NCBI RefSeq assembly: GCF_054482525.1
Contig: NZ_CM137006.1
Reading direction: 5' to 3' (one strand)
Length of the DNA: 64,000 nt
The notes beneath the pieces were generated by a model that searched no databases, was not told where the DNA came from, and worked only from the letters and a program-made list of their open reading frames with translations. Both the position numbers and the translations under genes were made by a program. Positions 58,481 through 59,476 of the stretch are shown here, one piece after another; position 1 is the stretch's first letter, and each line of letters begins with the position of its first letter.

Positions 58481-59476
58481 TCATGCAGGCAAATACGTTT
58501 TCTTAAGCGGCACCAACAGCTTAGTTTCAATATCCACCTGCTCATAGTTTTCCACTAACGCGCGTACCAAATCGTCCAGCGTCCATAGCGTCAACGGGAT
58601 TGTAGAACGATCGGCCTCATAACGCGCATCCTTGCTGAATCCGCCGGTACTAACATACAGCCCGCGATCGTCTTTATGACGGCCACCGATAAAGCTACGG
58701 ATTTGCTGGCTGCTCATCTGTTCCCGCCGGTGCTTCACCTCAACAATAATGCGCGGATTTTCAAACCCAAATCCGTCAGGCGAAGCAATGATGTCTTTCC
58801 CACGGTCAGCACCCGCAGGCGATACCTGAGTTTTATATCCCATGCTGCGTAACACGCCAGCGACCAGATTCTGCATCTCATCCCAGTCGAGACGGTTGAT
58901 ACGATCCTTGATGCCTTCAAAAGCGATCATTTCCATGTCGCGCAGAGGATTAGAAACGACCTCATCCTCTTCACCTGAAACAGGTACTTCCGGCACGATA
59001 TCTGAGACAGGCTTATTGCCCTGCACTAATTCATTCACAGCAAAATCAGGCACCTGAAAAACTGTCAGCGTTGAACCAAGGGTGTTTCTGGTTGCATCAC
59101 TCAGACTATCGCGCTTAATCTCTTCCGCATTCCACTTCACTTTACGGGCGATGCCCATGCCATCTTCAAGCCACTCGGCATGAAACTCAAAATCTGACGC
59201 TATTTTCCCTATTAAATAGGTCCGATTAGAAGGTGAATAAGTGATAGCCCAGTCGCCTTTCTGCATTTCATTCACAAAGCGCCAGACCTGAGAAGCTCCA
59301 GAACGAACTGTGCCTGGCTTAGTCTGTGGCTCAAGCTCCTGATACCGGGTAAACAACTGCTCTCTTGAGCATCCAGGTTTCACATAGGGAGCGAGCTGCG
59401 ACCAACCAATTGCAACAACCTGTTTGTCTCTGAAGTCGTCGTACAATTTTCCGCCATCACCGCGGATCATCCACAT
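58481..59476 (-). CDS. Mrr-cat (PD-(D/E)xK) restriction endonuclease with an N-terminal EVE/PUA-like putative modified-base reader domain (candidate Type IV restriction enzyme)
   Basis: Track ORF 58481..59644; C-terminal Mrr-type catalytic core (GADRGKDIIASPDG...RIIVEVKHRRE...LYVSTGGFSKDA); N-terminal segment VAIGWSQL...QVWRFVNEMQKGDWAITYSP resembles the EVE motif; start (59536/59476/59470) uncertain. Confidence 0.7.
   Translation of the reverse strand: MWMIRGDGGKLYDDFRDKQVVAIGWSQLAPYVKPGCSREQLFTRYQELEPQTKPGTVRSGASQVWRFVNEMQKGDWAITYSPSNRTYLIGKIASDFEFHAEWLEDGMGIARKVKWNAEEIKRDSLSDATRNTLGSTLTVFQVPDFAVNELVQGNKPVSDIVPEVPVSGEEDEVVSNPLRDMEMIAFEGIKDRINRLDWDEMQNLVAGVLRSMGYKTQVSPAGADRGKDIIASPDGFGFENPRIIVEVKHRREQMSSQQIRSFIGGRHKDDRGLYVSTGGFSKDARYEADRSTIPLTLWTLDDLVRALVENYEQVDIETKLLVPLKKTYLPA

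Follow-up and report, generated by a model that had tools for sequence, protein, structure and literature searches.

A predicted DUF8426–Mrr_cat nuclease of the candidate defence family PDC-S02 in an Escherichia coli defence island

Gene content of the locus

We analysed a window of 64,000 nucleotides (contig NZ_CM137006.1, assembly GCF_054482525.1), which matches the chromosome of E. coli PCN033 at 100% identity. The gene under study, hereafter the nuclease gene, sits in an island on the leuX side, flanked by Mokosh type II and by a ThsB-like TIR gene that has decayed. The features of this part of the window are listed below in the direction in which the nuclease gene is read; residue numbers count from ATG 59476.

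59622..59651, minus: sigma-70-like promoter match (CTGAAA-18-TATAAT, 10/12) from a consensus scan, inside the 3′ end of mkoC
59544..59581, minus: hairpin in the spacer between mkoC and the nuclease gene, with a perfect 12-bp stem, a 14-nt loop and no U-tract after it
59495..59498, minus: AGGA, Shine-Dalgarno-like, 6 nt upstream of GTG 59488, read from the sequence
58481..59476, minus: DUF8426-Mrr_cat coding sequence, stop TGA 58483-58481; alternative starts GTG 59488 (335 aa) and ATG 59470 (329 aa)
59018..59476, minus: N-terminal domain, predicted PUA-like beta-barrel, Pfam DUF8426/PF28530, aa 1-153
58943..59017, minus: acidic linker, predicted disordered, aa 154-178 (VPEVPVSGEEDEVVSNPL...), pLDDT <50 in the full-length model
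58559..58900, minus: Mrr_cat PD-(D/E)xK nuclease domain, Pfam match aa 193-306
58793-58795, 58739-58741 and 58733-58735, minus: catalytic residues D228, E246 and K248, respectively
aa 276-280, minus: STGGF motif, within the Mrr_cat domain
58445..58476, no strand assigned: hairpin with a 10-bp stem, directly after the nuclease stop codon and before the convergent TIR pseudogene, read from the sequence

The minus strand of 58481-59476 translates into an intact ORF of 331 aa from ATG 59476, a count that includes both N-terminal Met codons, and the six-frame ORF list contains a 387-aa open frame here (58481-59644, minus). On the plus strand the same interval has stop codons throughout. All the strings quoted in the initial annotation were found in the translation, namely VAIGWSQL (aa 21-28), VWRFVNEMQKGDWAITYSP (aa 64-82), IVEVKHR (aa 243-249) and STGGFS (aa 276-281). 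The PCN033 annotation in RefSeq places the start two codons later, at ATG 59470, and names the 329-aa product a 'restriction endonuclease' (WP_086176906.1). Close homologues are mostly 335 aa long and carry a four-residue N-terminal extension (MxxK/R-MWM), which is the form produced from GTG 59488. Since these homologues share the extension and AGGA stands 6 nt upstream of that GTG, the sequence suggests that the true start may be 59488. The protein has 6346 homologues at E ≤ 1e-3, the best at 1e-203, far above chance.

The gene upstream on the same strand (59598-63113, minus), first described as a helicase-PLD gene, was identified as a complete MkoC of Mokosh type II (PADLOC positions 1-1135 of 1136, E = 0). 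The spacer measures 121 bp from its stop codon (TAG 59600-59598) to ATG 59476, as had been reported. The spacer region folds with a minimum free energy of -35.3 kcal/mol (z -2.9 against shuffles), and its hairpin may serve as a transcript 3′ end, an attenuator or an RNA stabiliser. The match at 59622..59651 is a possible promoter of the nuclease gene's own, as judged from a scan in which such matches occur in this region at about chance expectation; the gene may also be co-transcribed with mkoC. On the far side of mkoC, an HNH endonuclease gene is separated from it by a conserved 125-aa hypothetical gene (63439-63816, minus), which matched no PADLOC model and accompanies MkoC in every E. coli locus inspected.

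The convergent downstream gene (57479-58240, plus) is a ThsB1-like TIR pseudogene in this strain, with a frameshift and an internal stop, and is about 219 bp shorter than intact alleles, which elsewhere encode 345 aa and match PADLOC ThsB1 at E 2e-153. It also holds an in-frame ATCCTG repeat of 4.5 copies (57710-57736). No ThsA gene was found nearby, leaving an orphan Thoeris-type TIR gene beside a type I R-M system. That system has two different hsdM genes in tandem (54234-55739 and 55736-57337, minus; 501 and 533 aa, with a 4-nt overlap) upstream of hsdS and hsdR, an arrangement common to other E. coli strains. Farther away, at 46272-49909 (plus), an AAA ATPase gene with weak AriA/PtuA/AbiLi-like matches overlaps a gene for a 635-aa N6-methylase with a type I S-subunit-like C-terminal domain, and the pair may be a separate methylase-ATPase defence module.

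A C-terminal Mrr_cat nuclease domain

The C-terminal half of the protein is predicted from its sequence to be an Mrr_cat PD-(D/E)xK nuclease, and its D228...E246-x-K248 site is intact. The Mrr_cat core proposed in the initial annotation was recovered by Pfam (PF04471, E 2.6e-23), with aa 193-306 aligned to model positions 1-114 of 115, and the three catalytic residues are present here and invariant across 59 homologues. The domain has a restriction-endonuclease-like fold, and its nearest structures are DNA endonucleases.

A divergent PUA-like N-terminal domain

The N-terminal domain gave no significant match in the Pfam library, NCBIfam or PDB sequences (phmmer and profile searches), and the whole protein falls into no NCBIfam family. 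Its assignment to DUF8426 is indirect, through homologues: every close homologue (61-92% identity) in which the N-terminal part is preserved has a precomputed PF28530 assignment. We found no paper on PF28530 or DUF8426. Searched exhaustively, aa 1-161 gave 1637 representative clusters (50% identity), among which 118 homologues at 30-58% identity were chosen for an alignment of the domain.

The AlphaFold model built on this alignment reached pLDDT 95 and pTM 0.88. In Foldseek, its first 29 matches were all YTH or EVE domains at probabilities of 0.91-1.00, with E-values of about 3e-3 or weaker and TM-scores below 0.5 for most matches (maximum about 0.5). The model thus points to a PUA-like barrel from the EVE/YTH/ASCH group; the TM-scores below 0.5 indicate that it is a divergent elaboration, into which two helices are inserted at aa 38-70. 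The sequence relation to EVE did not hold up. The EVE profile (PF01878) aligned below threshold over aa 65-121 (hmmscan i-E 0.25) and reached E ≤ 0.1 in 3 of the 118 homologues, while hhalign of the 118-sequence alignment against four solved EVE proteins gave a probability of 9.6%, over the 'RFxxxxxxGDxxxxY' stretch. Because of this low value and the hmmscan score we rejected membership of the EVE sequence family, of which UPF0310 is a sequence relative. The EVE/PUA-like signature claimed for the N-terminus is therefore retained as a predicted PUA-like fold, resembling YTH and EVE structures, and given up as an EVE assignment by sequence.

Seventeen positions are kept in at least 90% of the 118 distant homologues (R5, G24, F67, D75, Y80, R85, Y87, G90, R111, V113, W115, R122, D123, L125, L133, G134 and F140), and W25 is invariant among close homologues only. 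From this conservation, F67, Y80, Y87, W115 and W25, together with R5, R85, R111 and R122, are candidate pocket residues for a flipped modified base. Since no characterised reader family is assigned to the domain by sequence, pocket residues and specificity cannot be transferred from known readers.

RNA and free nucleotides are ligands of PUA-like domains too, which counts against reading this one as a detector of modified DNA. The target might instead be an unmodified sequence, a DNA structure or lesion, or an RNA that is recognised and cut, as ASCH, PUA and YTH domains often bind such ligands. The scores of YTH and ASCH RNA-binding domains against the N-terminal domain come close to those of EVE DNA readers, related McrBC branches are predicted to target RNA (PMC11090510), and the sequence yields no readable modification specificity. 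However, Mrr_cat and its nearest structures are DNA endonucleases, and a sequence-specific DNA nuclease would be self-toxic if it lacked a cognate methylase, for which no conserved partner was found. We consider such a target unlikely, if slightly less so than the other alternatives discussed below.

DUF8426 in other protein architectures

The N-terminal domain also occurs on other effectors. In a 685-aa protein (P0225) DUF8426 is followed by an McrB AAA+ module and lid, with an McrC gene next to it; in a 1176-aa protein (P0242) it precedes a DUF262/GmrSD-like region; and on a Rhodococcus plasmid it lies within an 'AAA family ATPase'. Plasmids of Proteus, Bacillus, Corynebacterium, Butyrivibrio and haloarchaea carry the two-domain DUF8426-Mrr_cat layout itself, at 25-47% identity. 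As judged from these domain orders, DUF8426 in McrB and GmrSD-like proteins occupies the position of a Type IV modified-DNA reader. These swaps at the reader position are the strongest contextual argument that DUF8426 would read nucleic acid on behalf of a restriction effector.

A PUA-like domain could also act as a danger-signal sensor in abortive infection, binding a free modified nucleotide (e.g. m6-dAMP from degraded host DNA) and unleashing the Mrr domain on any DNA, that of the host included. There is a precedent in E. coli PUA-Cal-HAD, whose PUA-like domain is reported to sense free m6-dAMP and whose family is also fused to HNH and McrB effectors (10.64898/2026.01.15.699771). The modelled fold is equally near to m6A-binding YTH and to EVE, and the flexible linker would permit autoinhibition. 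A sequence link between DUF8426 and the PUA family of PUA-Cal-HAD is not established, however, calcineurin/HAD partners are absent among the 150 best representatives and from every neighbourhood examined, and the McrB fusion with McrC adjoining more simply fits a DNA-bound reader. A sensor of this kind seems to us improbable.

Membership and distribution of the PDC-S02 family

The nuclease gene is, by sequence, a member of the PADLOC candidate single-gene family PDC-S02, because the HMM match is full-length (positions 5-330 of 334, E 6.9e-82). Proteins of this DUF8426-Mrr_cat type were found in Proteobacteria, Firmicutes, Actinobacteria and haloarchaea. Among 5426 complete E. coli genomes, 137 (~2.5%) carry the gene, chromosomally in every case. 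In the phage collection, hits were confined to two near-identical Salmonella records, a 2.9-kb unannotated 'Salmonella phage' fragment and a 501-kb S. Infantis contig, neither of them a clear phage genome; this near-absence indicates that the gene is not typically phage-borne.

Insertion sequences have broken the gene in other E. coli strains, indicating continuing loss of the nuclease module. One allele is split by IS621 (locus L009, 6001-8271) and another is cut to its first 55 nt beside ISEc52 (locus L008, 6001-6055); MkoC is intact at both. In the literature on PDC-S02 we found census mentions and one negative plaque assay, and no validated phenotype: a cold-seep PDC-S02 gene, a distant representative of the family, was expressed in E. 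coli B and did not figure among the candidates conferring protection from T4, T5 or T7 (10.1101/2024.09.26.614923). As it concerns one heterologous gene and three phages, this negative result is weak evidence.

The broken alleles, the lack of protection by the cold-seep homologue and the pseudogene state of the neighbouring TIR gene would all suit a nuclease gene that is an inactive remnant, or else a housekeeping or stress nuclease like the pressure-responsive Mrr of E. coli. Yet the ORF is intact here and all invariant catalytic and N-terminal residues are present, and the E. coli alleles are 95-100% identical, 119 of the 137 being near full length. We regard decay or a non-defence role as a poor explanation, less credible than the sensor.

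Independence from neighbouring systems

We compared eight genomic contexts of the nuclease gene. In E. coli its neighbours are Mokosh II and the TIR gene; in Erwinia and another enterobacterium, a type III mod/res pair; in Pseudomonas, an HNH gene and an integrase; and in Rahnella and others it lies at the distal end of CbtA/RadC/antirestriction islands. In a further enterobacterium (locus L011), within a BREX/GmrSD island, a 531-aa ORF (8001-9596, P0005) joins an internal MkoC fragment (AAA_11) to the full DUF8426-Mrr_cat protein. This fusion is probably a deletion product, and it shows that adjacency of MkoC and the nuclease occurs beyond E. coli. No partner gene is conserved across the eight contexts, so the nuclease gene is a self-contained module. 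Nor is there a conserved adjacent methylase, the type III mod/res pair being unrelated and present only at some loci; by neighbourhood inspection the gene thus lacks a cognate protective methyltransferase, as is characteristic of Type IV enzymes.

The arrangement in E. coli raises the question of an accessory role, either as a subunit co-transcribed with MkoC of Mokosh type II or as the effector of the adjacent ThsB-like TIR protein. The nuclease gene follows mkoC on the same strand at 121 bp, the three-gene block is present in 133 E. coli genomes, the MkoC fragment is fused to the nuclease in one enterobacterial genome, and the ThsB-like gene has no ThsA nearby. MkoC, however, fits the single-gene model of Mokosh II over its full length and survives where IS elements have destroyed the nuclease gene, and in this window it is set apart from the nuclease gene by a strong hairpin and a promoter-like site. 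MkoC is missing at the Pseudomonas, Erwinia, Rahnella and other enterobacterial loci, where the nuclease gene occurs with neither MkoC nor TIR, and on this ground we rejected it as a Mokosh accessory gene. A diverged TIR copy adjoins a type I R-M system at a locus that lacks the nuclease gene, so that a functional TIR-nuclease pairing is unlikely; the two genes as a variant Thoeris pair were likewise rejected, the nuclease family occurring elsewhere without the TIR gene and the diverged TIR gene without the nuclease. Of all the readings considered, an accessory function appears the least plausible to us.

Comparison with characterised modification-dependent enzymes

The closest parallels in architecture are MspJI and AspBHI, 5mC/5hmC-dependent Type IV/IIM enzymes with an SRA-like N-terminal domain and an Mrr-like PD-(D/E)xK C-terminal domain; SRA-Mrr-like enzymes of this type have been characterised (PMC12707154). 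The layout and the nuclease fold are shared, whereas their reader is SRA-like and the one here is DUF8426, which in the model lies nearer to EVE and YTH. The catalytic motif also differs, being D...ExK here and PD-QxK in MspJI (PMC12707154), and no PDB sequence match at E ≤ 1 related the protein to MspJI. Architectures that combine EVE with PD-(D/E)xK or HNH nucleases were previously predicted to be Type IV enzymes (PMC7641849), and EVE-HNH enzymes have been characterised (PMC6765204). The modification-dependent endonucleases VcaM4I and TspA15I are of the EVE-HNH kind; their nuclease is HNH where the present one is PD-(D/E)xK, and their reader is by sequence an EVE domain, while DUF8426 falls below EVE thresholds.

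E. coli K-12 Mrr, a Type IV enzyme, has the Mrr_cat catalytic domain in common with the protein described here, but its reader is a winged-helix Mrr_N. As the initial annotation had stated, the N-terminus differs from that of Mrr: Pfam gave no Mrr_N match, and the modelled fold is PUA-like. The PADLOC Type IV Mrr model mREase_IV matched aa 167-314 only, and weakly (E 5e-4). In McrBC and archaeal McrB proteins with YTH-like or PUA-like heads, the reader drives a GTPase motor and a separate nuclease, whereas here it is fused straight to the nuclease. No difference was found from PDC-S02, which is a computational candidate family. Since the family is already catalogued, as PDC-S02 and as DUF8426+Mrr_cat, this gene is one more uncharacterised member.

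Proposed mechanism

Taken together, the sequence and the structural model favour, with somewhat better than even odds in our judgement, a product that is a stand-alone, single-chain, Type IV-style (modification-dependent) restriction endonuclease of PDC-S02. The PUA-like DUF8426 domain would bind DNA and accommodate a modified base, probably by the base flipping that SRA, EVE and YTH readers use. Binding would position the Mrr nuclease domains, probably in a dimeric or tetrameric assembly like that of MspJI/AspBHI, for cutting DNA close by, and the acidic flexible linker of about 25 residues would let these domains reach it. With no cognate protective methylase in the host, the enzyme would have to ignore host Dam, Dcm and type I methylation, and its target would be a modification of foreign origin, such as the hypermodified base of a phage or a methylation pattern that is not the host's own. 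The gene itself is mobile cargo carried by defence islands and integrative elements, and its product would act independently of TIR and Mokosh II.

Significance

Fusions of PUA-superfamily readers to nucleases are a major obstacle to DNA transfer and to phages whose genomes are modified, and they have been a source of epigenetic tools, such as MspJI, AbaSI and VcaM4I. In the present strain the nuclease gene would add a further independent module to a dense defence island that holds type I R-M, a ThsB-like TIR remnant and Mokosh II. As a more speculative thought, which we hold to be a long shot, DUF8426 could be a reader with a specificity new to restriction enzymes, for a hypermodified phage base or for a free modified nucleotide whose appearance signals infection, as in PUA-Cal-HAD; if so, PDC-S02 would be a ligand-gated nuclease and not a classical Type IV enzyme. 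DUF8426 is still labelled as of 'unknown function' despite its wide spread. Once known, the modification that it recognises would put a name to a common defence gene, and could provide a new modification-specific enzyme.
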